This document shows positions 2,422 through 22,927 of a DNA stretch of 64,000 nt, one piece after another. The notes below the pieces were generated by a model. The model saw nothing but the letters and a program-made list of their open reading frames with translations, was not told the origin of the DNA and searched no databases. The DNA lies in the NCBI GenBank assembly GCA_900772775.1, contig CAAGRW010000134.1:6866-70865 (forward strand), given 5' to 3'. The first letter of the stretch is position 1; the number at the start of each line of letters is the position of its first letter. The position numbers and the translations under genes are program-made. The DNA is from Candidatus Rifleibacteriota bacterium (GTDB lineage Bacteria; Vulcanimicrobiota; Xenobia; Xenobiales; Xenobiaceae).

Positions 2422-3726
2422 ATGGCATATGATGAAAAACAAAATTCAGATCAGGGATGGAGTAAACCGCGCCTCAAGCCTAAAAAACAAGGCTCGGCCG
2501 AGGGTAAAACGGCTAAAGTAGGCGGCGAAAAAGGTGGCGGCCCTAGCTCTGTCGGCGGTGGACTCAAGGCCAAAATAAGGGCTCGGCGTGAGCAAGAACA
2601 GCTTAAAGACGTCTCTCAAGGTATAAAGGCTCGCTCCAAAGCTTTTAATCGAAAACAGGAAGAAAAGGCCGCTCAAGCAGAGGTTGGCAGTGAGGCCATA
2701 GGCAAAAAGCGCCCTGCCAACAAAAAAAAGTTTAAAAACAACAAATTGTTTGGCCTCACTTTGTTGGCGCCCGGCCTTGATGAGTGCGATCCTGAAGGTG
2801 TGGCCGCCTTAGATGGAACGTTAGCCGCTTGCTTGGGCCAAGCTCCAGCTGCCGCCCAGCCTATTGCCGCAAATGAAAGTTGCAGCGCTCGCCACCCAGC
2901 ACCAGGAGAGGCCGAGCCTTTGCCTATGGCTGCGCCCTCTGCGCCTATAGCTTCGGCGCCTGCACAATCGGTGGCCGCCTTGGCCGACAATGTTTCTGCA
3001 CAGCCGAACTTTGGTGCGCCGCCAGTGGCAGCGCCAGTTTCACCGCTGCGCCCCTATAAGCACCAGCCTCACGAAGCTGGGGGCGAGCTCGAGCCTTATA
3101 TTCCCGGTCGTCGTCCTGCAGCTTCAGCGCCTGCGGTTGCCCAAGGGCAGACATATGCTACATCCGGCGAGGTGTCGGAGGTCGCTGCACCGGCCAAGCC
3201 CGAGTCAAGTGGAGCGGCAGCCAAATTGCAATTGGCTATTCCTACTTCACCTCTTCGTCCTTATCGTGGGCAGCCTCGTGAAGCCGTTTCAGAGCGCAAG
3301 CCTTATATTCCCGGTGTACTCCATCCATCTACACATACTGCGGGCAACTTATCAGCTGCGCCCAACTTCGGAACAGGAACGGCTTCTGTGTACAGTGCCC
3401 CAGTTAGTGCCGCTCACTTGGGCTCCTCAGCTTCTAAAAATACGGTTTTGCCTTTGCCTGTTGGGCGTGCTCACAAAGCGGCCGCTCAAAAAAACAAGGT
3501 GCTTCATGAAGAAGGCGGCAGCTACCGATCATCGGCGCGAGCCAATTCAAATGATGATTTTGGTGGCCAAGCTCGCGAGGCTGCCGGTAAAAATGGCAAC
3601 CACAACCAAGAAACTATTCCTCCTGAAGAGGAAGAGTCCGAAACATCCACTGAAGGCAAATCACTTATAGAATTGTTGGAAAGTGTGCCAGTGGCCAAGC
3701 GCAAAGGCCCAAGTCGCTATGTTTAA
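2422..3726 (+). CDS. Low-complexity Ala/Pro/Gly-rich hypothetical protein with internal repeats (SPLRPY..QP..EPYIPG and SAQPNFG)
   Basis: 434-aa ORF with a very basic K/G-rich N-terminus, a repeated SPLRPY[KR]xQP[HR]EA...[EK]PYIPG motif, and an acidic C-terminus. Overlapping alternative-frame ORFs look like GC-skew artefacts. Confidence 0.5.
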   Translation: MAYDEKQNSDQGWSKPRLKPKKQGSAEGKTAKVGGEKGGGPSSVGGGLKAKIRARREQEQLKDVSQGIKARSKAFNRKQEEKAAQAEVGSEAIGKKRPANKKKFKNNKLFGLTLLAPGLDECDPEGVAALDGTLAACLGQAPAAAQPIAANESCSARHPAPGEAEPLPMAAPSAPIASAPAQSVAALADNVSAQPNFGAPPVAAPVSPLRPYKHQPHEAGGELEPYIPGRRPAASAPAVAQGQTYATSGEVSEVAAPAKPESSGAAAKLQLAIPTSPLRPYRGQPREAVSERKPYIPGVLHPSTHTAGNLSAAPNFGTGTASVYSAPVSAAHLGSSASKNTVLPLPVGRAHKAAAQKNKVLHEEGGSYRSSARANSNDDFGGQAREAAGKNGNHNQETIPPEEEESETSTEGKSLIELLESVPVAKRKGPSRYV

Positions 3727-3934
3727 TACAATATGGCCGCAGTGTGCACAACTAAGTGACATATTTAGGCTTCAATAGATAATTCTACCTTCTAAAAATT
3801 GCCCAAAGGCTGTGCTCTAAGTCGTTTTGAAAGGCAATCAAAGCCTACTTGTGGAAAAAAGTTGGCAAGAAGGATAACGCAAAAAATTTTAGGATACTAT
3901 AAACTAACATATCAGAGTTGATGGCGAGGGAGTT

Positions 3935-5398
3935 GTGAACAGCTCAGGTTATGACAACAAAAATGGAGGGCTAGGCGGCGGTGACGACGCCGGTCGCCTA
4001 GGTTTAAAGTTTGACAATGCCCTTAACGGCGATCATTTAGATCCTGCAACCGTAGTTCATCGTCGGCCTAGTGCTTTGGCTATGCGCCGTGGTACCAATA
4101 TTAGCCCTTACAGACGGGCCAAGCCTACGCCCACTTCTGCTGGCCGAACGGCTCCCAAAAAATACGATACTCCGCCCAGTTTGAGCGCTCAGGGCTACGG
4201 AGATGGTACTTCGGTAAATAGGAGTCCACAAGGCCCGTTCGGCACTACTTCTCAAAATTACGGCGGCGGCTTCCAAGGACAAAACCCTTACAGTGGCTAT
4301 CCAAACCAGCAGTCCGGCTTTGGCAATACCAATTTAGGCAATAGCGGTTTCCAAGGGCAAAATCCTTACGGCGGCTATCCAAATCAGCAGTCCGGTTTTG
4401 GCAATACCAATTTGGGCAATAGCGGCTTCCAAGGACAAAATCCTTACGGTGGCTATCCAAATCAGCAACCCGGTTTTGGCAATACCAATTTGGGTAATAG
4501 CGGTTTCCAAGGACAAAGCCCCTACGGCGGTTACCAAGGTCAACAGCCTGGCTTTGGCGCCAGGACTAATACTTTTTGTCAGACTGGCGGTTTTGGTGCC
4601 CAGACAAATTTAATGGGTCAAACCGGAGGTTTTGGCGCACAAAACAATTCGCCATTTTCCGGCTACGGTACCAATTCTGGAATAGATCGCCGCGAAGGCA
4701 GTTTGAGCGATGTCTTGTTAGCTTCGCGCCGCAGCTCCAATCCCAATGCCGGTTTAGGTGGAGGCATTGGCGGAAATGAATCCGGCGATCCTTCAGAGCC
4801 TTCCGGCCATTTGAGCCCGGCCGAAACTTATGCCAAATTGGTAGAAGAAAGCCAACAAGAGCGCAACTCTTGGCGCGGATTTGTGGCTTGGTTCCAAGGT
4901 GGAGGCAAATATACTGTTTTGAGCTTTATGATCGTAGTGGTGGCTCTTTCAGTCTTTGCTCTATTTTTGTTCCACCGTATCAATAAAGATAACGAAGAAA
5001 CCGCTGGAGAACAGGGCCGCCGCGTTACTGAGTCTGTCTCGGAAGCTGCGTCCGAAACGGATAGCTCCAGGCGCAAATCTCAAGAATACAAAGGCTCTGT
5101 TGTTTCTGGCAATAGCGATAAAAAGGCTGCCGAAGAATATAGTCCCAGAGCTGAGGCTTTGAAAAAGTCAGTTTCTTCTCAATCTAAGTCTCAAGCGGCA
5201 ACCAAGAGTCAGGCCAAAGCTACTACTAAAGCCAAGCCTACCAAGGCTGCTCCGGTCAAGAAAGCTGAACCTAAAGCTGCTCCTCCCAAAGAAGAAGCAT
5301 TTGACGACGAGCCTACCTACTATGGAGAAGAAGGAGACGATTCCGCTTTCCATATGGATGATAACGATTTCGCCCCTTCGGTAGATGTTGAATATTAA
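3935..5398 (+). CDS. Single-TM protein with an N-terminal Gly/Asn/Gln/Tyr-rich 26-aa tandem repeat (x3.5) and a C-terminal Lys/Ala/Pro-rich tail
   Basis: Repeats GFQGQNPYGGYPNQQSGFGNTNLGNS are encoded by imperfect 78-bp DNA repeats across 4268..4560. The differences between copies are mostly synonymous (the encoded 26-aa units are nearly identical), which fits selection on the protein. A single TM segment (YTVLSFMIVVVALSVFALFLF) is followed by a KSQAATKSQAKATTKAKPTKAAPVKK... tail and an acidic end. The GTG start at 3935 is uncertain. Confidence 0.55.
   Translation: MNSSGYDNKNGGLGGGDDAGRLGLKFDNALNGDHLDPATVVHRRPSALAMRRGTNISPYRRAKPTPTSAGRTAPKKYDTPPSLSAQGYGDGTSVNRSPQGPFGTTSQNYGGGFQGQNPYSGYPNQQSGFGNTNLGNSGFQGQNPYGGYPNQQSGFGNTNLGNSGFQGQNPYGGYPNQQPGFGNTNLGNSGFQGQSPYGGYQGQQPGFGARTNTFCQTGGFGAQTNLMGQTGGFGAQNNSPFSGYGTNSGIDRREGSLSDVLLASRRSSNPNAGLGGGIGGNESGDPSEPSGHLSPAETYAKLVEESQQERNSWRGFVAWFQGGGKYTVLSFMIVVVALSVFALFLFHRINKDNEETAGEQGRRVTESVSEAASETDSSRRKSQEYKGSVVSGNSDKKAAEEYSPRAEALKKSVSSQSKSQAATKSQAKATTKAKPTKAAPVKKAEPKAAPPKEEAFDDEPTYYGEEGDDSAFHMDDNDFAPSVDVEY
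4268..4560 (+). repeat. 78-bp imperfect tandem repeat (~3.5 copies) inside CDS 3935..5398
   Basis: Direct reading: ggcttccaaggacaaaacccttacagtggctatccaaaccagcagtccggctttggcaataccaatttaggcaatagc and variants. Confidence 0.8.
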
Positions 5399-5408
5399 TA
5401 TTGTGTAG

Positions 5409-5446
5409 TCGGCCTCAAGTTCTTGTAGCTTTAGGCCGATTTTTTT
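5409..5446 (+). terminator. Rho-independent terminator
   Basis: TCGGCCT...AGGCCGA stem followed by TTTTTTT, 11 nt after the stop codon at 5396..5398. Confidence 0.6.
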
Positions 5447-5585
5447 CGCCCTCTCTCTGGCTAATTGCCATTAAAACTCTTTGTACTTGGGAAGGTAAAA
5501 GGCCCACCTGTTCGAAAGGGTCACACTGTTTGTTTTTTTTGTCTTTTTAAAGGCAGACCTAGTTTTTTATGCGAGGTTTTTTATA

Positions 5586-6572
5586 ATGGTCGCTGCTCAG
5601 AATAAATTTGAGACGACTGGTAGTATTTTGGTTGCCGGCTCGTTGGCGTTCGATTTTATTATGCGCTATGCCGGGCTTTTCAAAGAGCACATTCTGCCTG
5701 AGCGTTTAGATTCTATAAATTTGTCGTTCTTGACTGAGCGAGCCCGCAAAGAGCGCGGCGGCTGCGCTGGCAATATTGCCAACGCTTTGGCTATGTTAGG
5801 AGAACATCCCCGCATAGTGGCTACTGCAGGCGGAGATTTTGAGCAGTATCGTTTCTACCTCGAAAACAGAGGAGTAGATACTTCTTGCATTGCTGTTTAT
5901 GAAGACGAATTGACCGCTACTTGCACAGTTTGTGCCGATAAATGCGACAATCAGCTCACTTTTGTTAGCGTCGGCGCCATGGCTGAAGCTCACAATTTAG
6001 ATTTGAGCAAGTTCGCTACCGAGCAAACTAAGTTGGCGATCATTTCACCCGACGATCCCAAGGCCATGAACCAGCATTGTGAAGAAGCTAGAAAAGCTGG
6101 TATTCCTTTTATTTACGATCCTTCTTTCCAAGTGATCGCTTTTTCCGGTGAGCAGCTTTTGACCGATGTTAAAGGCGCCAAAGCCTTAATTGTCAACGAC
6201 TACGAATTTTCGCTTTTCTTAGATAAGACCGGTTTAACTCAGCCGCAGCTTAATGAAATTGTAGAAGTAATTATTGTTACTAAAGGCGGCGAGGGCAGTA
6301 CCGTTTATACCAATAAAGGTGAAGTTTTACATATCGATCCTGTTAAAGTAGAAGCTGTCGATCCTACTGGCGCTGGCGATGCTTTCCGCGGTGGCTTAAT
6401 CTATGGTTTGCTTCACGGTTTGTCTTTAAAAACTTCCGCTCAATTGGGCAGTGTCTGTGGCGCTTACGCTGTCGAGCATTTAGGCACCCAAAATTACAGT
6501 TTTACTATGGACGCTTTTAAAAGGAGATACGAATCTACTTTTAATGAGCCTGCGCCTAGTTGCTTAGCTTAA
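5586..6572 (+). CDS. PfkB-family carbohydrate/nucleoside kinase (ribokinase-like)
   Basis: 328 aa. PfkB signature 2 DPTGAGDAFRGGLIYGL near the C-terminus, and an N-terminal GSLAFD motif. Confidence 0.8.
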   Translation: MVAAQNKFETTGSILVAGSLAFDFIMRYAGLFKEHILPERLDSINLSFLTERARKERGGCAGNIANALAMLGEHPRIVATAGGDFEQYRFYLENRGVDTSCIAVYEDELTATCTVCADKCDNQLTFVSVGAMAEAHNLDLSKFATEQTKLAIISPDDPKAMNQHCEEARKAGIPFIYDPSFQVIAFSGEQLLTDVKGAKALIVNDYEFSLFLDKTGLTQPQLNEIVEVIIVTKGGEGSTVYTNKGEVLHIDPVKVEAVDPTGAGDAFRGGLIYGLLHGLSLKTSAQLGSVCGAYAVEHLGTQNYSFTMDAFKRRYESTFNEPAPSCLA

Positions 6573-6718: not shown

Positions 6719-8314
6719 CTAAGGACATACAGCGATACCCCAAGGAGTAGATTGGGGCATAGGTGAACTGGTGTTGATGACGCCGCCGCTGTGGCCGTCC
6801 AAAATGCTGATATTGCTGCTGCCGGTGCAAGCTACGAAAACTTTGTTGCCGTCAGAAGTGCAAGCAATACCTACAGGGCCTTTGCCTACGGGAACGGTGG
6901 CAATAGGCGATTGGTTTTGGCCATTAAGTACGGTGACGTTGTCGGAGCCTTTATTAGTAACAAACACTTTGGAGCCGTCAGGAGTAATGGCTACTCGCTG
7001 AGGGTTGACGCCTACGCGGACGCGGCCCATTTCTTGGAAAGTCCAAGCATCAATTACTGAAAGATCGCCGGAACCGGAATTGGCTACGTAAAGGAAGCGT
7101 CCGTCGGGAGAAAGTTCCATACCGCAAGGGTTGGCGCCTACAGGTAAAGCTTTTTCGGGAATGCCTGTAGAGAGGTTGATAGCTAAAAGCTCACCAGAAG
7201 AGGTGGTGCCCATAGTTACAAACATGCGAGTGCCTTCGCGATTGATAACGGCGGCGCGGGGCTGGCCAGCTTCACCGGTACGCATACGCGGCAATACAAT
7301 AGAGCGTTGGGGAGCGTTGCTGACTGGATCAATTAAAATGACGCTGGGTGAGGCGCTCATTACTGTAGCGATAATGTAGTTGCCATTCTGAGCCATACGT
7401 AAGTCGGTGACAATGCCGCCGGCGGGAATGGAAGTAAGCAACTGGTTGTCGTTAGCAGTATCGTAAATTTGGATCATACGATCGGAAGTGCTGACGTAAA
7501 GTCTGGTGCCCGAAGCATTAAAGGCAGACCAGAAGGGCTGACTGCCCAACGATTTGTAGTTGGGGTTGCCGGGAGCGTCGCCGTTCATGATCATTATGGA
7601 GTTGGGGTTGGCGCTGAAGGTTGAACCTTGCATGGCCGTCATCATATCGTGGGCGCTACCCAATTGGGTGGGCATTTGGGCATTTTGAGCCATAGTATTG
7701 TTGATACCGAAGGGGTTACCTTGGCCCAAAAGGAGCATTTGCGCATAGGATTGAGTGGTTGTTACTGGAGGTGCATTGTAGGAAGTGCTGCTGCCAGCAG
7801 GAGCGCCCTGACCGGCTTTGGCAGCTAAGCAAATGTAGGCTGTGCCAGGATCGATAGGGGCGCGTACGCCTTGCATACCGTTAGACATGGTATTGCCAGG
7901 ATTCATGCCCGGGTTGAGGATCACTGTCACCATGGCTCTTTCGCCAGGCCCTTTAGGCACGGTGACGCTTTTTGTTACCATACCTACGCCAGCTTTTTGT
8001 ACCATCAAGGTGTATTGACCAGGTTTTACAGTAAAGTAAAAGACGCCCTGAGAGTCGGTGACAGCTTTTTGTTTAGTTTCTTGTACAGTTACTTCGCAAG
8101 AATCTAAAGGCTCGTAGGGAACATCAATAGCACTGCGTCCGGGGCGGGAAGTGACTACGCTTCCGCACAAGTTGGGATCGCGATATTTATCAAATTTTTT
8201 ATCGTTATAGTCAGCTTTCTTTTTGGCTATGGCCGGGGCTGCCAAAAGTCCCGCGATAATGGCGGTAACTAAAAACAGCCAAAGAAAATTGACTTTTCCG
8301 GCATATTTGCGCAT
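6719..8314 (-). CDS. Secreted YVTN-type beta-propeller repeat protein with an N-proximal carboxypeptidase-regulatory-like (CarboxypepD_reg/Cna-B-like) domain
   Basis: Signal peptide MRKYAGKVNFLWLFLVTAIIAGLLAAPAIA. Repeated ...SPDGRFLYVANSGSGDLSVID..., ...TPDGSKVFVTNKGSDNVTVL... and ...TSDGNKVFVACTGSSNISILD units (YVTN 40-residue beta-propeller repeats). Confidence 0.7.
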   Translation of the reverse strand: MRKYAGKVNFLWLFLVTAIIAGLLAAPAIAKKKADYNDKKFDKYRDPNLCGSVVTSRPGRSAIDVPYEPLDSCEVTVQETKQKAVTDSQGVFYFTVKPGQYTLMVQKAGVGMVTKSVTVPKGPGERAMVTVILNPGMNPGNTMSNGMQGVRAPIDPGTAYICLAAKAGQGAPAGSSTSYNAPPVTTTQSYAQMLLLGQGNPFGINNTMAQNAQMPTQLGSAHDMMTAMQGSTFSANPNSIMIMNGDAPGNPNYKSLGSQPFWSAFNASGTRLYVSTSDRMIQIYDTANDNQLLTSIPAGGIVTDLRMAQNGNYIIATVMSASPSVILIDPVSNAPQRSIVLPRMRTGEAGQPRAAVINREGTRMFVTMGTTSSGELLAINLSTGIPEKALPVGANPCGMELSPDGRFLYVANSGSGDLSVIDAWTFQEMGRVRVGVNPQRVAITPDGSKVFVTNKGSDNVTVLNGQNQSPIATVPVGKGPVGIACTSDGNKVFVACTGSSNISILDGHSGGVINTSSPMPQSTPWGIAVCP

Positions 8315-11571: not shown

Positions 11572-14034
11572 TTAGAACTTAACTTTGAACTGAGTGGTGA
11601 CCTGCCAGCCGTACCAGCTGAAAGGATGGTTGGTGTAACCAGGCTGAGTGTTATCAGCGCTCTGACCCAAACCGCTGAGGTCGGCGAAGGTAGCGGCATC
11701 AACCTTATCCTTGGTGTCGTAGTAACGGAAGTCCATGTTCCACTGAGTGTTGGCGCTCAAGTCGCAGTCGAAACCGATGAAAGGAATGGTCTGCTGAACG
11801 TCAATGTTCTTGAAGTCAATGGCGTTGACGGAAGCGGCGAACTGGTTGTAAGCACCGGAAGGATCCCAGTGACCATTGATGTTAACCATGTCGCAACCGG
11901 CGCGCAAGGTCCACTGATCGTTGGCTTCCCAGCCTAAACCGATGTGGAAGTTGTCGTTGTTTAGCTTGACGTAGTTCTGGCTACCACCATCGAGAGCGGC
12001 GAGGTCGCTATCACGTTTGAACTCATTGCGGTTGTAACCGAGGTCGAGTTTCAAACGAGGGTTGTCCCACTTGTAGCTGGCGCCGATACCGTACTGGGTC
12101 TGCTTACCTTTGTGATCTTCCATAGAGTTAAGATCGTCATTGAAAGAAAGGGCAGAGTAACCGTAGAAGACGGGATCCATGAAGCCAGGAGCAAAGCCGA
12201 GAACGGTGTTGCCAGCGGCATCTTTAGTGCGTACGTCGTACAAGCTGGACTCTTTCTGGTTCAAGAAAGCGGCCTTAGCCCATACTAAACCGTGACGATC
12301 ATCGAAGCGCCACTGACCGTTGAAGCGGATACCTTCGCGGTTGTGAGGATACACTTCAGTGTCGTGCAAGGACCACATATTGTCATAGTAGTTGGTGTTG
12401 AACACATTGAACACGCTATAACGATCAGTAGTACCGTTCAGATAGTAGGGGTTCATGTTTACGAAAGGATCGTAGTTAGGATCTACGGATACGTAAGCCA
12501 AGCTGAGGTCGAGGTCGCCCTCTAACAAGTTGGCACCAACTTCTACGCGGAAAGCGTTACCATCAGAGGTATAGTCGGAGTTCTTGTTAGCTTTGTATTC
12601 GGTGCGGGCATATTCACCGGCGGCGTAAATTTCGTTACCGGACTCGCCGATATCCCACTTGTAGTTGGCGCTGATGCCATAACCGAACATGCTCTGAGGA
12701 CCGAAAGCACCGATATCGGTTAAGGGGCGCTTATCAAATCCAGGAGTGTCGTAACCGGGAACGGTAGCCATGCTAGCGGCGGAATACTCAGAGGGGTTGA
12801 CCCACTGCATATCACCAGCAGCACCGGCGATCAAACCGGTAGCCAAGGTGTTACCGTTAGCGGCTTCGTTAGCAGCGCGCATGAAGTTGACTTTTACCTG
12901 GCCGCCGCCGAACTCGAAGGCGATGTCGCCACCGATGATGTCGGTATCGTAGCTGTAAAGAGCATCAGTTTCATTGTCCTGAATGCCACCGAAGGTAGAA
13001 ATACGAGAACCTAAAACTTCCCAACGAAGTACGCCAGCTTCGAAAGCGTGGCTGCCGCTCAGGTTGAAACCGAAGCGATCTAAGTAGTCGGGGCCGAAGG
13101 CGGAGAGGTTCTTCTGGCCGGCGAAGAGGATGTTGTCCATGTTGTCTTCGCTGTAAGCACCCAAGGTGAGCTTAATGCCGGAAGGATTGTGAATTACCCA
13201 GAAGTTGTCCAACACCATGCGGGTGTAGGGGGCGTTGTTCAAGCTGTTAACGGAAGTGGAGCCGCCAAACTGGTTGCAGAGGTAAGGAGCGGAGACACCC
13301 CAGAGGGAGTCAACCATGCTGTTACCAGCGGAAGTGTAAGCAGCGAACTCAGCGCCGGCGTCGATATCGTCGGAAACGCGGATGCGCATACCGAGGATAC
13401 CCTTCATGGTGAAGCCGGTACCATTGGTGAGGCCTACGCCGTTGCGATAGTCAGCAACGGGAAGTACGCCACCAAACTGAGGACGATAAGCTAATCCATC
13501 AACAGTGCCAACAGCAGAGTTGTAGTCATAAGCGCCGTTGAGGAGAGTATTGTTGTTGTTTGTCTGCATACCGTCAGCATCGTTGTGGAAGGACTGAGCG
13601 GTAACGCGGGCTTCCAAGGAGCCGTAGAAGGTGATTCTCTCGAGCTCGGAGACGCGGAGGTCGAGTTTGTCAACCTTGTCTTCCAAGGTGCCAACGCGGG
13701 CGCCGAGGGCGTCTAATTCGCTACGGAGAGCGTCCACCAATTTCTGGAGCTCAGCGAGCTCGGCCTTGGTGGCGAAAGTGGCGTGCTCCTGCTCCATCTG
13801 ACCGAGCAAGCGAGCAACCATCATAGCAACTTCCCAACGAGTGGCGTTTCTGTCACCCTTGAAAGTGCCATCGGGATAACCTTCGACAATACCTTTAGCA
13901 GCCAAGGTGGCTACGGCATCACGAGCCCAATGATTCTCGGGAACATCCGGGAATAAAGGAGCAGCGAATGCAGGGGCGGCTAGACCGAGTGTAAATACTG
14001 CGGCAGCAACCGTAGTTTTCATGCGTAAATTCAT
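11572..14034 (-). CDS. SLH-domain outer-membrane porin (SLH, coiled-coil, then C-terminal beta-barrel)
   Basis: Signal peptide MNLRMKTTVAAAVFTLGLAAPAFA. SLH motif FPDVPENHWARDAVATLAAKGIVEGYPDGTFKGDRNATRWEVAMMVARLL. Coiled coil AELQKLVDALRSELDALGARVGTLEDKVDKLDLRVSELE. The long remainder is rich in alternating amphipathic strands and ends ...QFKVKF (C-terminal Phe typical of OM barrels). RBS AAGGAG. Confidence 0.8.
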   Translation of the reverse strand: MNLRMKTTVAAAVFTLGLAAPAFAAPLFPDVPENHWARDAVATLAAKGIVEGYPDGTFKGDRNATRWEVAMMVARLLGQMEQEHATFATKAELAELQKLVDALRSELDALGARVGTLEDKVDKLDLRVSELERITFYGSLEARVTAQSFHNDADGMQTNNNNTLLNGAYDYNSAVGTVDGLAYRPQFGGVLPVADYRNGVGLTNGTGFTMKGILGMRIRVSDDIDAGAEFAAYTSAGNSMVDSLWGVSAPYLCNQFGGSTSVNSLNNAPYTRMVLDNFWVIHNPSGIKLTLGAYSEDNMDNILFAGQKNLSAFGPDYLDRFGFNLSGSHAFEAGVLRWEVLGSRISTFGGIQDNETDALYSYDTDIIGGDIAFEFGGGQVKVNFMRAANEAANGNTLATGLIAGAAGDMQWVNPSEYSAASMATVPGYDTPGFDKRPLTDIGAFGPQSMFGYGISANYKWDIGESGNEIYAAGEYARTEYKANKNSDYTSDGNAFRVEVGANLLEGDLDLSLAYVSVDPNYDPFVNMNPYYLNGTTDRYSVFNVFNTNYYDNMWSLHDTEVYPHNREGIRFNGQWRFDDRHGLVWAKAAFLNQKESSLYDVRTKDAAGNTVLGFAPGFMDPVFYGYSALSFNDDLNSMEDHKGKQTQYGIGASYKWDNPRLKLDLGYNRNEFKRDSDLAALDGGSQNYVKLNNDNFHIGLGWEANDQWTLRAGCDMVNINGHWDPSGAYNQFAASVNAIDFKNIDVQQTIPFIGFDCDLSANTQWNMDFRYYDTKDKVDAATFADLSGLGQSADNTQPGYTNHPFSWYGWQVTTQFKVKF

Positions 14035-20637: not shown

Positions 20638-21960
20638 TTAGTGCAGCTCTTTCAAGGCTCGAGCGGCCAGGGCCAGAGCAGACTCCACATATTCTTCACT
20701 TTCGCCTAAAGCGGCCAAAGCTACGGTGCCATGAGCCGGCGGCGAAGTAATTATCAGTCCGCGTCTGCCCTTGGTTTTGTGCAAAAGGAGCGGTTCCCCT
20801 TCATAGGTGAGCGAGCCCAGCTTATCCAGCACTTCGTCGGTGGTAGTAGCTGCGGTAGGTAACGACTCTCGAGAACTTATATACAGGCTTGACCAATGGG
20901 GGCCAAAGAAGTGTTTGGCTATATCAACTACATAACCGAAACCGTTGTGACGGAAGTTGCATTCCAAAAAGATCGGCTCAAGTTGGCCGTGCTCGTTTCT
21001 AGTTAAGCCCCAGTCCATATTTAAATAGCCTCGGGCTCCAGTTAAGTATACTGAACGACCTAAGCGGTTTATATCGGCCAATAGCTTTGACATAGCTTCA
21101 TCGGCTTCCGAGCCGGTTAGGTTGGCCGGATAGTCAAAACCGCACCAACCTCCGTGAGTGTCAAACACTTGGCTGTCTAAGCCTACAAAATGGCAACCTT
21201 GATCGTCTATTAAGCTGAGCGAGCCGCAAACCGTTTCAAAATCTATAAATTGCTCAACTAACACTCTGCTGCCGCCGTACCATTGGGGCAAAGCCGTTTT
21301 CAATTCGTCGGCAGTGCCAGCTAAATTGCCAGCGCCGCCAGCCGATTGAATTTTGCGCAACATAAGTTTGGGCTGTTTTTGCTCATTTTGGGCTGAGAGC
21401 TGGGCCGAAACGGTGTCGATAAGCTGTTTCAGGCTGGAACTATTATCGGCACACATTCCCGGCGGCACTTGGCAACCCGCACCTATAGCCAAAGCTTTGC
21501 AAAAGTCTTTGCTATTTAAGTTGTCGATTAAGCCTAAAGCCAAGTATTTTTGGGCGGTGCCTTTTACGGGCAACTCCAATTGTTGGCCCAGCTCAAAAAT
21601 AGGCTCGGTCTGAATGTAGGGCTCGACAAACCAATCTTCACCTTGGCAGCGCTCTTTTATGGCTTGTAAAGCGGCGGCGTCGGCTTTAATAGCGTCGGTC
21701 AAGAGGCAACTTGCAGCCATTTTGACATTGATAACTGTTTGCTCGGGTGTTCCCAAATCGAGTAAAGAGCAAATATAGCTCTGGAAAGAAGGCTCGATTT
21801 GAGTAGGCGTTACCAACACATCACCTGGATTCAGTGAGCAAAGAAAGCGGGGGAAAACTTTCAAAGTTTTATGCTGAAAAAATTCACTAAAGCCGCCTTC
21901 AGAGGTTGGGATCACATTTTCGGCGTTGGGCAAAAATAGTTTAGGCATAGAACTTGCCAT
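20638..21960 (-). CDS. ATP-grasp-like ligase (hypothetical)
   Basis: 440 aa. Segments resemble ATP-grasp motifs: LMLRKIQSAGGAGNL (K-x-GSGG loop), VLVEQFID...GSLSL, and YLNMDWGLTRNEHGQLEPIFLECNFRHNG (the E-x-N Mg/ATP site). It overlaps the upstream rSAM gene by 20 nt. Confidence 0.5.
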   Translation of the reverse strand: MASSMPKLFLPNAENVIPTSEGGFSEFFQHKTLKVFPRFLCSLNPGDVLVTPTQIEPSFQSYICSLLDLGTPEQTVINVKMAASCLLTDAIKADAAALQAIKERCQGEDWFVEPYIQTEPIFELGQQLELPVKGTAQKYLALGLIDNLNSKDFCKALAIGAGCQVPPGMCADNSSSLKQLIDTVSAQLSAQNEQKQPKLMLRKIQSAGGAGNLAGTADELKTALPQWYGGSRVLVEQFIDFETVCGSLSLIDDQGCHFVGLDSQVFDTHGGWCGFDYPANLTGSEADEAMSKLLADINRLGRSVYLTGARGYLNMDWGLTRNEHGQLEPIFLECNFRHNGFGYVVDIAKHFFGPHWSSLYISSRESLPTAATTTDEVLDKLGSLTYEGEPLLLHKTKGRRGLIITSPPAHGTVALAALGESEEYVESALALAARALKELH

Positions 21961-22927
21961 CGCAGAGCATATTGCGAGGATATTTTTGCAAATTTAAGCC
22001 GCGAATGCTTTTTAAGGAGCAAAGCACAAATTGGAAATTGCGCTGCATAAGAGCTGTGGCCACTTTATCGACAGAAGCTAAAGCTACTTCGTTCTTTTGT
22101 GAAAAAGACACTGTGTCGTCTTGGCCAGGCAAAATTTTGCGACTAGCGTCAAAATTGTAGCGAGACAAGATCTTCTCCAATTCGGCTGGATCTAAAGCTT
22201 GGCGTATAGCATCCATAATGCCGGGCGAGAAGAGCAAGTACGACCACATGACGCGCTTTAAGTGGTGCTGCTCCAATAAATCGAGGAAAGGCAGCAATGC
22301 TTCGTCGCGGTCGTCAATTTGCGCAATAAAAGGATCGAGGTGAATTGTTGTCAGGCAACCGGCTTGGCAAATTTCTTCGGCTGCTTCTAAACGTGGTTGC
22401 AAAGGCTTTAAGTTTTTGACAAACTTGGCCAGCGGATTGGGATTGAGCATAACTGAAGGACTGAAGGCGGCGTTATAGGAGAACTTTTCGCGCCATTTGC
22501 TCATTAAATCGATAATTTCACGGCTGGGCAGTCCTTTAGTGGTAATAATTACTCGATTGACTTTGGAGGCGCTGAGAATTTTTAAAATTTCTAAACTCAG
22601 GCCGCTTTCTACAAACTTAGGCGTAAAAATATCGGTGTAGCGAGAAAGCTTTAATATGTTAATGTTGCCGGAGTTTACTTCTTCGTGGATGCGACGCAGC
22701 AATTCTTCTTCGGGATAGAGAAGGGCCGGATCGTCAAATTTGGCATTCAGTTCGTTTAAAGTATTGTTGACAGCTACGCGAGAGCGAGCGTAGCAATAAG
22801 GGCAATTGTGTTGGCAACCTACCCAAGGTTCCAAATAGTGATATTTTCCATACCAGCATGTTCCTAAAGAACCGGGAGCAAATAAAGTTACTTTTTCTTC
22901 CATTCGTAGATGTTCTCGTTTATTCAA
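21941..22927 (-). CDS. Radical SAM protein (SPL/COG1533-like)
   Basis: CQHNCPYCYA (CxxxCxxC) cluster at about residue 38. A 328-aa TIM-barrel-sized protein. Confidence 0.7.
   Translation of the reverse strand: MNKREHLRMEEKVTLFAPGSLGTCWYGKYHYLEPWVGCQHNCPYCYARSRVAVNNTLNELNAKFDDPALLYPEEELLRRIHEEVNSGNINILKLSRYTDIFTPKFVESGLSLEILKILSASKVNRVIITTKGLPSREIIDLMSKWREKFSYNAAFSPSVMLNPNPLAKFVKNLKPLQPRLEAAEEICQAGCLTTIHLDPFIAQIDDRDEALLPFLDLLEQHHLKRVMWSYLLFSPGIMDAIRQALDPAELEKILSRYNFDASRKILPGQDDTVSFSQKNEVALASVDKVATALMQRNFQFVLCSLKSIRGLNLQKYPRNMLCDGKFYA

Follow-up and report, generated by a model that had tools for sequence, protein, structure and literature searches.

A predicted bitopic, largely disordered protein with aromatic low-complexity repeats and its upstream partner in Candidatus Bruticola

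The 64,000-nucleotide stretch of DNA analysed here (contig CAAGRW010000134.1, positions 6,866 to 70,865 of the forward strand; hereafter the window, in whose coordinates all positions are given) belongs to Candidatus Bruticola (Vulcanimicrobiota, formerly Eremiobacterota; class Xenobia), an uncultured organism of the primate gut. Our subject is the open reading frame (ORF) at 3935-5398, hereafter the target, whose 487-residue product carries tandem repeats rich in glycine, asparagine, glutamine and aromatic residues ahead of a single predicted membrane helix. We propose, with a probability of about 0.35, that this protein and the product of the gene upstream of it (2422-3726) form a lineage-specific, membrane-tethered multivalent scaffold in which the aromatic low-complexity region self-associates. 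Purifying selection, predicted disorder, conservation of short motifs, a sticker-and-spacer pattern of aromatic residues, the pairing of the two genes and the precedent of PodJ all appear to favour such a role. The target product, from an orphan family, would belong in kind with disordered bitopic scaffolds or with envelope proteins of prion-like composition. What is new is the pairing with the upstream neighbour, which is now well supported by the gene structures found in distant relatives.

Split and fused forms of the gene pair

The two genes lie on the same strand; their products were modelled with AlphaFold, for which we quote the predicted local distance difference test score (pLDDT).

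2422..3726 (+): upstream partner gene, 434 aa; disorder predicted over almost the whole product (mean pLDDT 46), with conservation chiefly in short motifs
3935..5398 (+): target coding sequence, 487 aa; GTG start, TTG in the most distant Bruticola species

The initial annotation had described SPLRPY...PYIPG repeats in the upstream product, of which two units are present, and had suggested that the two proteins may form a functional pair. The motifs conserved in the upstream protein are an invariant KLFGLTLLAPGLDE (aa 108-121), SVYSAPVSA...SKNTVLPLPVGR and a C-terminal SLIELLESVPVAKR, and the structural elements predicted in it are a basic helix (residues 48-86) and two short helices (128-137 and 415-420). 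In all three non-Bruticola lineages, represented by the proteins P0027, P0029 and P0028, the upstream protein and the target read as one ORF, and Bruticola thus carries the two-ORF, or split, form of a protein of ~650-1100 aa, with no direction of change implied. The occurrence of one ORF in three lineages supports the suggestion that the upstream gene and the target are a functional pair.

The clearest case is P0027 (1104 aa), in which residues 211-261, including RLLGLTLLAPGLEE, match the profile of the upstream family (hhalign 93.7%, E 1.8e-7) and residues 905-1100 match that of the target (99.8%, E 7.9e-28). Between the two matches lies LDLNYNHGLNGKTIGDDATIPMNRRRS, colinear with LGLKFDNALNGDHLDPATVVHRRPS of the target, and downstream of the gene stands the same PfkB gene as in the window. 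The 90% cluster of P0027 has 34 members, which come from many independent assemblies and one NCBI metagenome-assembled genome; the full-length ones among those listed have 1104 or 1124 aa, and because they come from many assemblies the fusion is not an assembly accident. P0029 (641 aa) is encoded by the sole gene between the same amidohydrolase and PfkB neighbours and contains two copies of the motif F-L-G-x-x-L-L-A-P-G-L-N-[DE]; its independent match to the upstream profile is weak (E 0.002), and a stronger score is circular, since P0029 was itself part of that query. In the P0028 lineage, the called 508-aa protein begins at an internal methionine and the frame stays open to the 5' end of the contig in all four contigs. 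On the longest of these (L026) the frame encodes KSLPLPPPKR, resembling VLPLPVGR of the upstream protein, and on three of the four it encodes RLSELLDSLPAQRRKPKPRRY, resembling the upstream protein's SLIELLESVPVAKRKGPSRYV. The contigs (L021, L024, L025 and L026) end ~200-560 nt 5' of the called start, in or just upstream of a GGAPRP-type repeat stretch, and because they break there gene callers report the shortened 508-aa protein.

The identical target protein is encoded on 15 contigs assembled from human-gut samples, Hadza ones among them. A word-seeded search returned 25 homologues of 409-525 aa, every named one of them from Bruticola. When 1.84 billion representative proteins were searched exhaustively with a HMMER profile, built from an alignment of short-repeat variants, six matches emerged: two Bruticola clusters, one fragment and the distant P0027, P0028 and P0029; counted as clusters at 50% identity, they come to four besides the fragment. 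One-genome-per-species contigs and metagenome contigs of the Joint Genome Institute contained close relatives only. The distant relatives (~30% identity in the C-terminal module) keep a core of HLSPxETYA...SW.GF..WF.GGKY, the transmembrane helix and FxMDDNxFAP. Since the alignable C-terminal module is ~30% identical between lineages, against 69-78% for the neighbouring PfkB protein, the target protein evolves fast except at its motifs.

Searches of the target against Pfam, NCBIfam, PHROGs, PADLOC and PDB sequences yielded nothing significant; Pfam gave no match for the target (two noise matches at E <= 0.1), P0024, P0027, P0028 or P0029, and a PDB profile search with the upstream protein found no match. 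The sub-threshold hits to PFF1_TM, ECSCR, YidC, DnaX, phrog_6631 and PD-T4-6 were rejected as compositional matches to the membrane helix or the Lys-rich tail, and a PDB-profile match (E 0.39) between the Bcl-2 BH1 motif NWGRIVAFFEFGG and the juxtamembrane NSWRGFVAWFQGGG (aa 312-325, 4868-4909) was treated as chance. A word-based search with the C-terminal module added only P0030, a 227-aa protein that combines the N-terminal fragment of an ABC-transporter ATPase with a P0028-type C-terminal tail and is probably a chimeric assembly. Judged by sequence, the target thus represents a small, clade-restricted orphan family that belongs to no known family.

Repeat array, disorder and predicted topology

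The ORF at 3935-5398 is a real gene under purifying selection. In comparisons with seven orthologues, the ratio of non-synonymous to synonymous substitution rates (dN/dS) in its frame is 0.07-0.21 overall. It falls to 0.01-0.04 in the juxtamembrane and membrane segments, takes values of 0.03-0.16 in the repeat region and rises to 0.16-0.47 in the post-membrane spacer, which evolves faster than any other part; within the genus, the N-terminal part has values of 0.00-0.08. The segments of the coding sequence are as follows.

3998..4228 (+): invariant N-terminal motifs (aa 22-98), LGLKFDNALNGDHLDPATVVHRRPSALAMRRGT..PYRRAK and APKKYDTPPSLSAQGYGDGTSVNRSP; predicted to be disordered (AlphaFold)
4268..4501 (+): three near-identical 78-bp (26-aa) units, GFQGQNPYGGYPNQQSGFGNTNLGNS; in codon register 4268-4345, 4346-4423 and 4424-4501
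4502..4672 (+): degenerate fourth unit (4502-4579), then a second repeat type, QTGGFGAQTN-x3; ends the uncharged G/N/Q/F/Y region
4688..4732 (+): conserved RREGSLSDVLLASRR motif (aa 252-266); short predicted helix
4808..4909 (+): family-defining juxtamembrane helix (aa 292-325; predicted), HL(S/T)P(A/S)ETYA(K/R)..., then SW.GF..WF.GGGKY
4910..4975 (+): single predicted transmembrane helix (aa 326-347), from hydrophobicity and an AlphaFold helix
4976..5299 (+): post-membrane spacer (aa 348-455), predicted periplasmic; acidic/Ser-rich start, then Lys/Ala/Pro/Ser-rich
5300..5395 (+): invariant acidic/aromatic C-terminal peptide, DDEPTYYGEEGDDSAFHMDDNDFAPSVDVEY; core F(H/K)MDDN(D/E)FAP kept in distant lineages

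At 4266-4537, Tandem Repeats Finder detects a repeat of 78 bp (3.5 copies, 89% matches), and the peptide of units 1-3 is GFQGQNPY(S/G)GYPNQQ(S/P)GFGNTNLGNS. In pairwise comparison these three units differ at 6-8 nucleotides, corresponding to 5-6 synonymous and 1-2 non-synonymous codons (dN 0.016-0.033, dS 0.39-0.66, NG86). The minimal changes over the three units are nine synonymous and two non-synonymous, where random substitution would give a synonymous fraction of 0.22 (binomial p = 3.9e-5). This count bears out the initial annotation, which had described nearly identical units with mostly synonymous differences. It had also argued that the repeat is functional rather than the result of recent slippage, which stands for the peptide, as this is under purifying selection. 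The array itself is not fixed and ranges from one to four copies.

Units containing TNLGN number one, two, three and four in 10, 8, 5 and 2 protein clusters, respectively, and 1, 2, 4 and 4 units occur in four proteins that are otherwise distinguished by 1-6 substitutions among 369 residues outside the repeats, a variation that may be partly artefactual, as short-read assembly can collapse near-identical 78-bp units. At the DNA level, the units of one species are often nearest each other, for example those of L012, and the units in the window are as close to those of the sister L011 as to one another. The divergence between units without protein change (dS 0.4-0.7) is comparable with or above that from the closest species (dS 0.25). 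Because units cluster partly by lineage and copy number runs from one to four, the array appears to expand and contract within lineages, with selection acting on the unit peptide and not fixing the number of units.

The low-complexity region (residues 112-246) consists of 27% G, 16% Q, 14% N, 9% F, 7% Y and 7% P, with a single charged residue among 135. Its 21 aromatics are spaced on average 6.5 residues apart (largest gap 13) and include six FG and ten GF dipeptides, and its ten prolines fall one every 5-8 residues. The F and Y positions are kept in every unit and in all Bruticola species, and the composition of the region is preserved across these species though the repeats differ. The best 80-aa window of the target contains 62 G, N, Q, Y and F residues, compared to at most 39 in any other ORF of the window.

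Elsewhere in the protein, conservation is confined to short blocks that are invariant across 13 sequences with 59-97% overall identity, and between these blocks composition is kept but sequence is not. One block (residues 292-347) comprises HLSPAETYAKLVEESQQER..W.GFVAWF.GGGKYT and the membrane helix, and another (residues 457-482) is DDEPTYYGEEGDDSAFHMDDNDFAPS near the C-terminus. AlphaFold, run with the alignment of 13 sequences, gave a mean pLDDT of 40 for the target, with values below 50 in the repeat region, and predicted no folded domain and no beta structure; the elements that it placed are short helices at residues 48-51, 257-266 and 476-478, the juxtamembrane helix (296-322) and the membrane helix (324-364).

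The membrane anchor noted in the initial annotation corresponds to the only strong hydrophobic segment, residues 326-347 (19-residue Kyte-Doolittle mean 2.9). The target protein has neither a hydrophobic N-terminus nor a signal peptide, and there is no in-frame start earlier than the GTG. In seven homologues the flanks of the membrane helix carry net charges of +2 to +3 on the N-terminal side and -3 to +2 on the C-terminal side, and in the fused homologues the part before the helix reaches ~930 aa, likewise without a signal peptide. From the lack of a signal peptide and of an earlier start, the charge balance of the flanks and the ~930-aa pre-membrane part of the fusions, we infer, by established membrane-insertion rules, an N-in, C-out topology, which would put the repeat in the cytoplasm and the Lys/Ala/Pro tail, acidic tip included, in the periplasm. 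The target is thus predicted to be a bitopic, almost entirely disordered inner-membrane protein.

The Lys-rich tail (residues 395-452, nt 5117-5290; K 24%, A 24%, S 12%, P 10%) is poorly conserved in sequence and keeps its basic character alone, and the last 32 residues of the protein include 12 acidic and no basic ones. The earlier comparison of this tail with histone H1 holds for its Lys/Ala/Pro composition, but the predicted topology places the tail in the periplasm, away from the DNA. At the other end of the protein, the N-terminal RLGLKFDNALNG presumably resembles the ParB-like peptide "GLGRGLxALL"; we made no use of this likeness.

Possible roles of the low-complexity region

In the proposed scaffold, the 325-aa N-terminal part would lie on the cytoplasmic side of the inner membrane, where partners, the upstream protein among them, would bind to its invariant motifs. 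The evenly spaced aromatics, set in an uncharged Gly/Asn/Gln/Ser/Pro spacer, would permit weak multivalent self-association, and this could produce a condensate or meshwork that extends in two dimensions along the cytoplasmic side of the membrane, with repeat number tuning valency and reach. On the other side of the membrane, the Lys/Ala/Pro/Ser-rich stretch would serve as an extended periplasmic spacer that presents the acidic/aromatic C-terminal peptide to a partner in the wall or the outer membrane. A more specific version of this proposal is doubtful: here the region would be a membrane-tethered, FUS/GLFG-like aromatic sticker-and-spacer domain that forms the two-dimensional condensate or meshwork, and the scaffold would have been split by gene fission in Bruticola into a soluble and an anchored half, with coupling to the envelope through the periplasmic spacer and a docking peptide.

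Three observations weigh against a self-associating scaffold. First, the aromatic-rich character is not family-wide: in the P0028 lineage the corresponding region is rich in Pro, Ser, Thr and Ala and has an aromatic content of 4%, with P0027 and P0029 lying in between, so that the ancestral requirement may have been for a flexible spacer only. Second, the presence of one to four copies in near-identical strains amounts to length tolerance. Third, no gene of a known polarity, division or envelope machine adjoins the pair, whose neighbours, an amidohydrolase gene and the PfkB gene, look metabolic.

The main alternative, which we consider possible though on balance unlikely, is that the low-complexity region is a passive, flexible tether, that is, an entropic spacer whose only effect is to keep the N-terminal docking motifs a given distance from the membrane, with no self-association. 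The variation in copy number between otherwise near-identical proteins, the aromatic-poor equivalent in the P0028 lineage, the ten prolines in 135 residues and the full disorder predicted by AlphaFold would all be expected of such a tether. A pure spacer should nevertheless accept substitutions, yet the units have a dN/dS of ~0.03-0.06 and all of them, throughout Bruticola, keep their F and Y positions; moreover, charge is almost wholly excluded from the region, which is typical of cohesive rather than merely flexible regions.

Far less probable is a true prion or functional amyloid domain that switches to a self-propagating cross-beta state. The initial annotation had called the repeats prion-like and likened them to phase-separating, FG-like or amyloid-prone sequences, and the composition bears this out insofar as the region is disordered, low in charge and rich in G, Q, N and F+Y (F+Y 16%); units such as PYGGYQGQQ also recall the oligopeptide repeats of Sup35. 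The Michelitsch-Weissman criterion for Q/N-rich prion-like regions requires at least 30 Q+N per 80-residue window, and the target falls narrowly short, with a maximum of 28 in the window that starts at residue 125. There is a bacterial precedent for a prion-forming domain in Rho of Clostridium botulinum (PMC4703818). Against an amyloid stand the prolines placed every 5-8 residues, which argue against a stable core and make amyloid unlikely, the lack of a match to Curlin or another amyloid family in Pfam, the absence of predicted beta structure and the probable location of the domain, which would be cytoplasmic and tethered to the membrane.

A reversed, N-out topology, in which the G/N/Q/Y repeats would act as a surface adhesive or matrix element and the tail with its acidic tip would be cytoplasmic and bind DNA or a partner, is about as improbable. 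DNA-binding tails rich in Lys, Ala and Pro are known from histone H1, AlgP and HupB, and the tail of the target shares their composition. The predicted prion-like domains of bacteria are, in addition, enriched in surface proteins (PMC4606120). However, there is neither a signal peptide nor an alternative upstream start, so that export of 325 residues that include 23 Lys/Arg, and of ~930 in the fusions, would need to proceed without any preceding signal sequence, and the charge balance around the membrane helix favours N-in in all homologues.

The last alternative, that the ORF is not a gene or that the functional frame lies elsewhere, is effectively refuted: repeats generically create long shadow ORFs on both strands (here 4245-4460, 4334-4543 and 4398-4613), but the annotated frame, rather than an overlapping one as the initial annotation had allowed for, is the conserved one, with a dN/dS far below 1 over seven orthologues, its start context is conserved, the gene has its own terminator and protein-level homologues extend down to ~30% identity.

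If the scaffold proposal is correct, the target would offer a compact model: a naturally membrane-anchored protein that combines a eukaryote-like aromatic repeat with the lack of any folded domain. By comparison, the condensation of LacY was induced artificially, and the same 2026 paper describes the phase separation of membrane proteins as little known (PMC13046807). The natural variants with one to four repeats, together with the split and fused forms, could serve as a model for valency, tethering and gene fission in disordered scaffolds. The gene pair also adds a conserved, clade-defining character to a phylum with a single cultivated representative (PMC9758169); its use is limited by an uncultured host and a tiny family.

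Expression signals, neighbouring genes and known systems

Three features flank the target coding sequence.

3756..3783 (+): promoter-like site, GTGACA-16-GATAAT, 10 of 12 matches, a consensus match only; inside the 208-nt spacer 5' of the target
3921..3938 (+): Shine-Dalgarno region GAGGGAG with a 5-codon mini-ORF (ATG GCG AGG GAG TTG TGA); conserved
5407..5448 (+): intrinsic terminator directly past the stop codon; hairpin free energy -17.4 kcal/mol, z -4.2, followed by U7

The start codon of the target is GTG or TTG in every species and never ATG, and the stop codon (TGA) of the mini-ORF overlaps the GTG. The 25 nt just 5' of the start, including GAGGGAG, are invariant in six Bruticola species, whereas the remaining spacer diverges; this may reflect translational coupling or control, or merely a constrained ribosome-binding site.

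The PfkB-family kinase gene (5586-6572) directly follows the target, or the fusion gene, in all lineages examined, at distances of 106-187 nt in Bruticola and 35-203 nt at non-Bruticola loci, and in one lineage it is followed by a PNP_UDP_1 nucleoside phosphorylase gene. We did not count this adjacency as a functional link, as the target has its own terminator in the window and the whole neighbourhood is syntenic. Further along, an ORF at 6719-8314 (-) encodes a 531-aa protein with a CarboxypepD_reg domain and a lactonase/YVTN-type beta-propeller, between which lies a low-complexity insert rich in Met, Asn, Gln, Gly and Pro, and an ORF at 11572-14034 (-) encodes an 820-aa protein with an N-terminal SLH domain. 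The latter would fit a diderm-Terrabacteria type of envelope, where SLH domains tether the outer membrane or an S-layer. At 16654-17269 of L001, corresponding to about 10.6-11.3 kb of the window, a HicA/HicB toxin-antitoxin pair lies in an otherwise housekeeping neighbourhood, and the P0016 lineage has insertions nearby, namely a Schlafen/AlbA_2-HATPase gene and a RelB/ParE pair. Adjacent genes for a pre-ATP-grasp domain protein and a radical-SAM protein (20638-22927, -), beside an MFS transporter gene, could form a small peptide-modification cluster.

Among well-studied proteins, the low-complexity regions of FUS and hnRNPA1, Sup35 and the GLFG nucleoporins are similar to that of the target in their richness in Gly, Asn, Gln, Ser and Pro, their spaced Tyr and Phe residues, near-zero charge and tandem units, and the target shares GFG and GFQ motifs. 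Like GLFG-type FG repeats, it has many FG dipeptides with short stretches of uncharged polar sequence between them, but no pore component was detected in the target protein or its neighbours. Only one strict FUS-type [G/S]Y[G/S] triad is present (residue 243), and most tyrosines lie in PYGGYP or PYGGYQ. In contrast to these eukaryotic proteins, the target is bacterial, tethered to the membrane by prediction and devoid of an RNA-binding or pore-anchoring domain, so that the likeness is one of composition and not of homology.

TonB and TolA have spacers that span the periplasm. The target resembles them in the low-complexity stretch rich in Lys, Ala, Pro and Glu that comes after its one membrane helix and would lie in the periplasm, but its helix is at residue 326 instead of the N-terminus and the protein ends in an acidic peptide of ~30 aa rather than a folded domain; no TonB_C or TolA domain, and none of the SPOR/FtsN type, was found in the target with Pfam and NCBIfam. 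A relationship to CsgA-type curli subunits finds no sign in the target, which has no Sec signal peptide and no Curlin repeats (Pfam, E <= 0.1).

A survey of bacteria found that predicted prion-like domains are over-represented in proteins of the envelope (PMC4606120), and the view of the initial annotation that such repeats are very unusual for a bacterial membrane protein was therefore overstated: they are uncommon, not unprecedented. The target shares with these proteins and with Rho of C. botulinum a disordered segment rich in Q and N, and with the former a link to the envelope, but it has no folded catalytic or binding domain, its Q/N density is slightly below the threshold and it is proline-rich.

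The closest parallel in overall plan is PodJ of Caulobacter crescentus, a condensate-forming bitopic protein that has coiled-coil and disordered sequence in the cytoplasm, a membrane span and a periplasmic part (PMC9684454). PodJ, HubP and FimV differ from the target in having coiled coils or TPR, peptidoglycan-binding, LysM or FimV domains; none of these was detected in the target, which shows no sequence similarity to these proteins, and Pfam found no such folded module in the target, P0024, P0027, P0028 or P0029. The low-complexity region of the target is also uncharged and aromatic, while those of PodJ-type hubs are acidic or Pro-rich. PodJ, and more loosely SpmX, HubP and FimV, nonetheless have a plan that the predicted architecture of the target would fit: bitopic, with a large N-terminal region on the cytoplasmic side that includes disorder, a single span and a periplasmic C-terminal region. 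PodJ is also a lineage-specific multivalent hub of the kind that we propose for the target.

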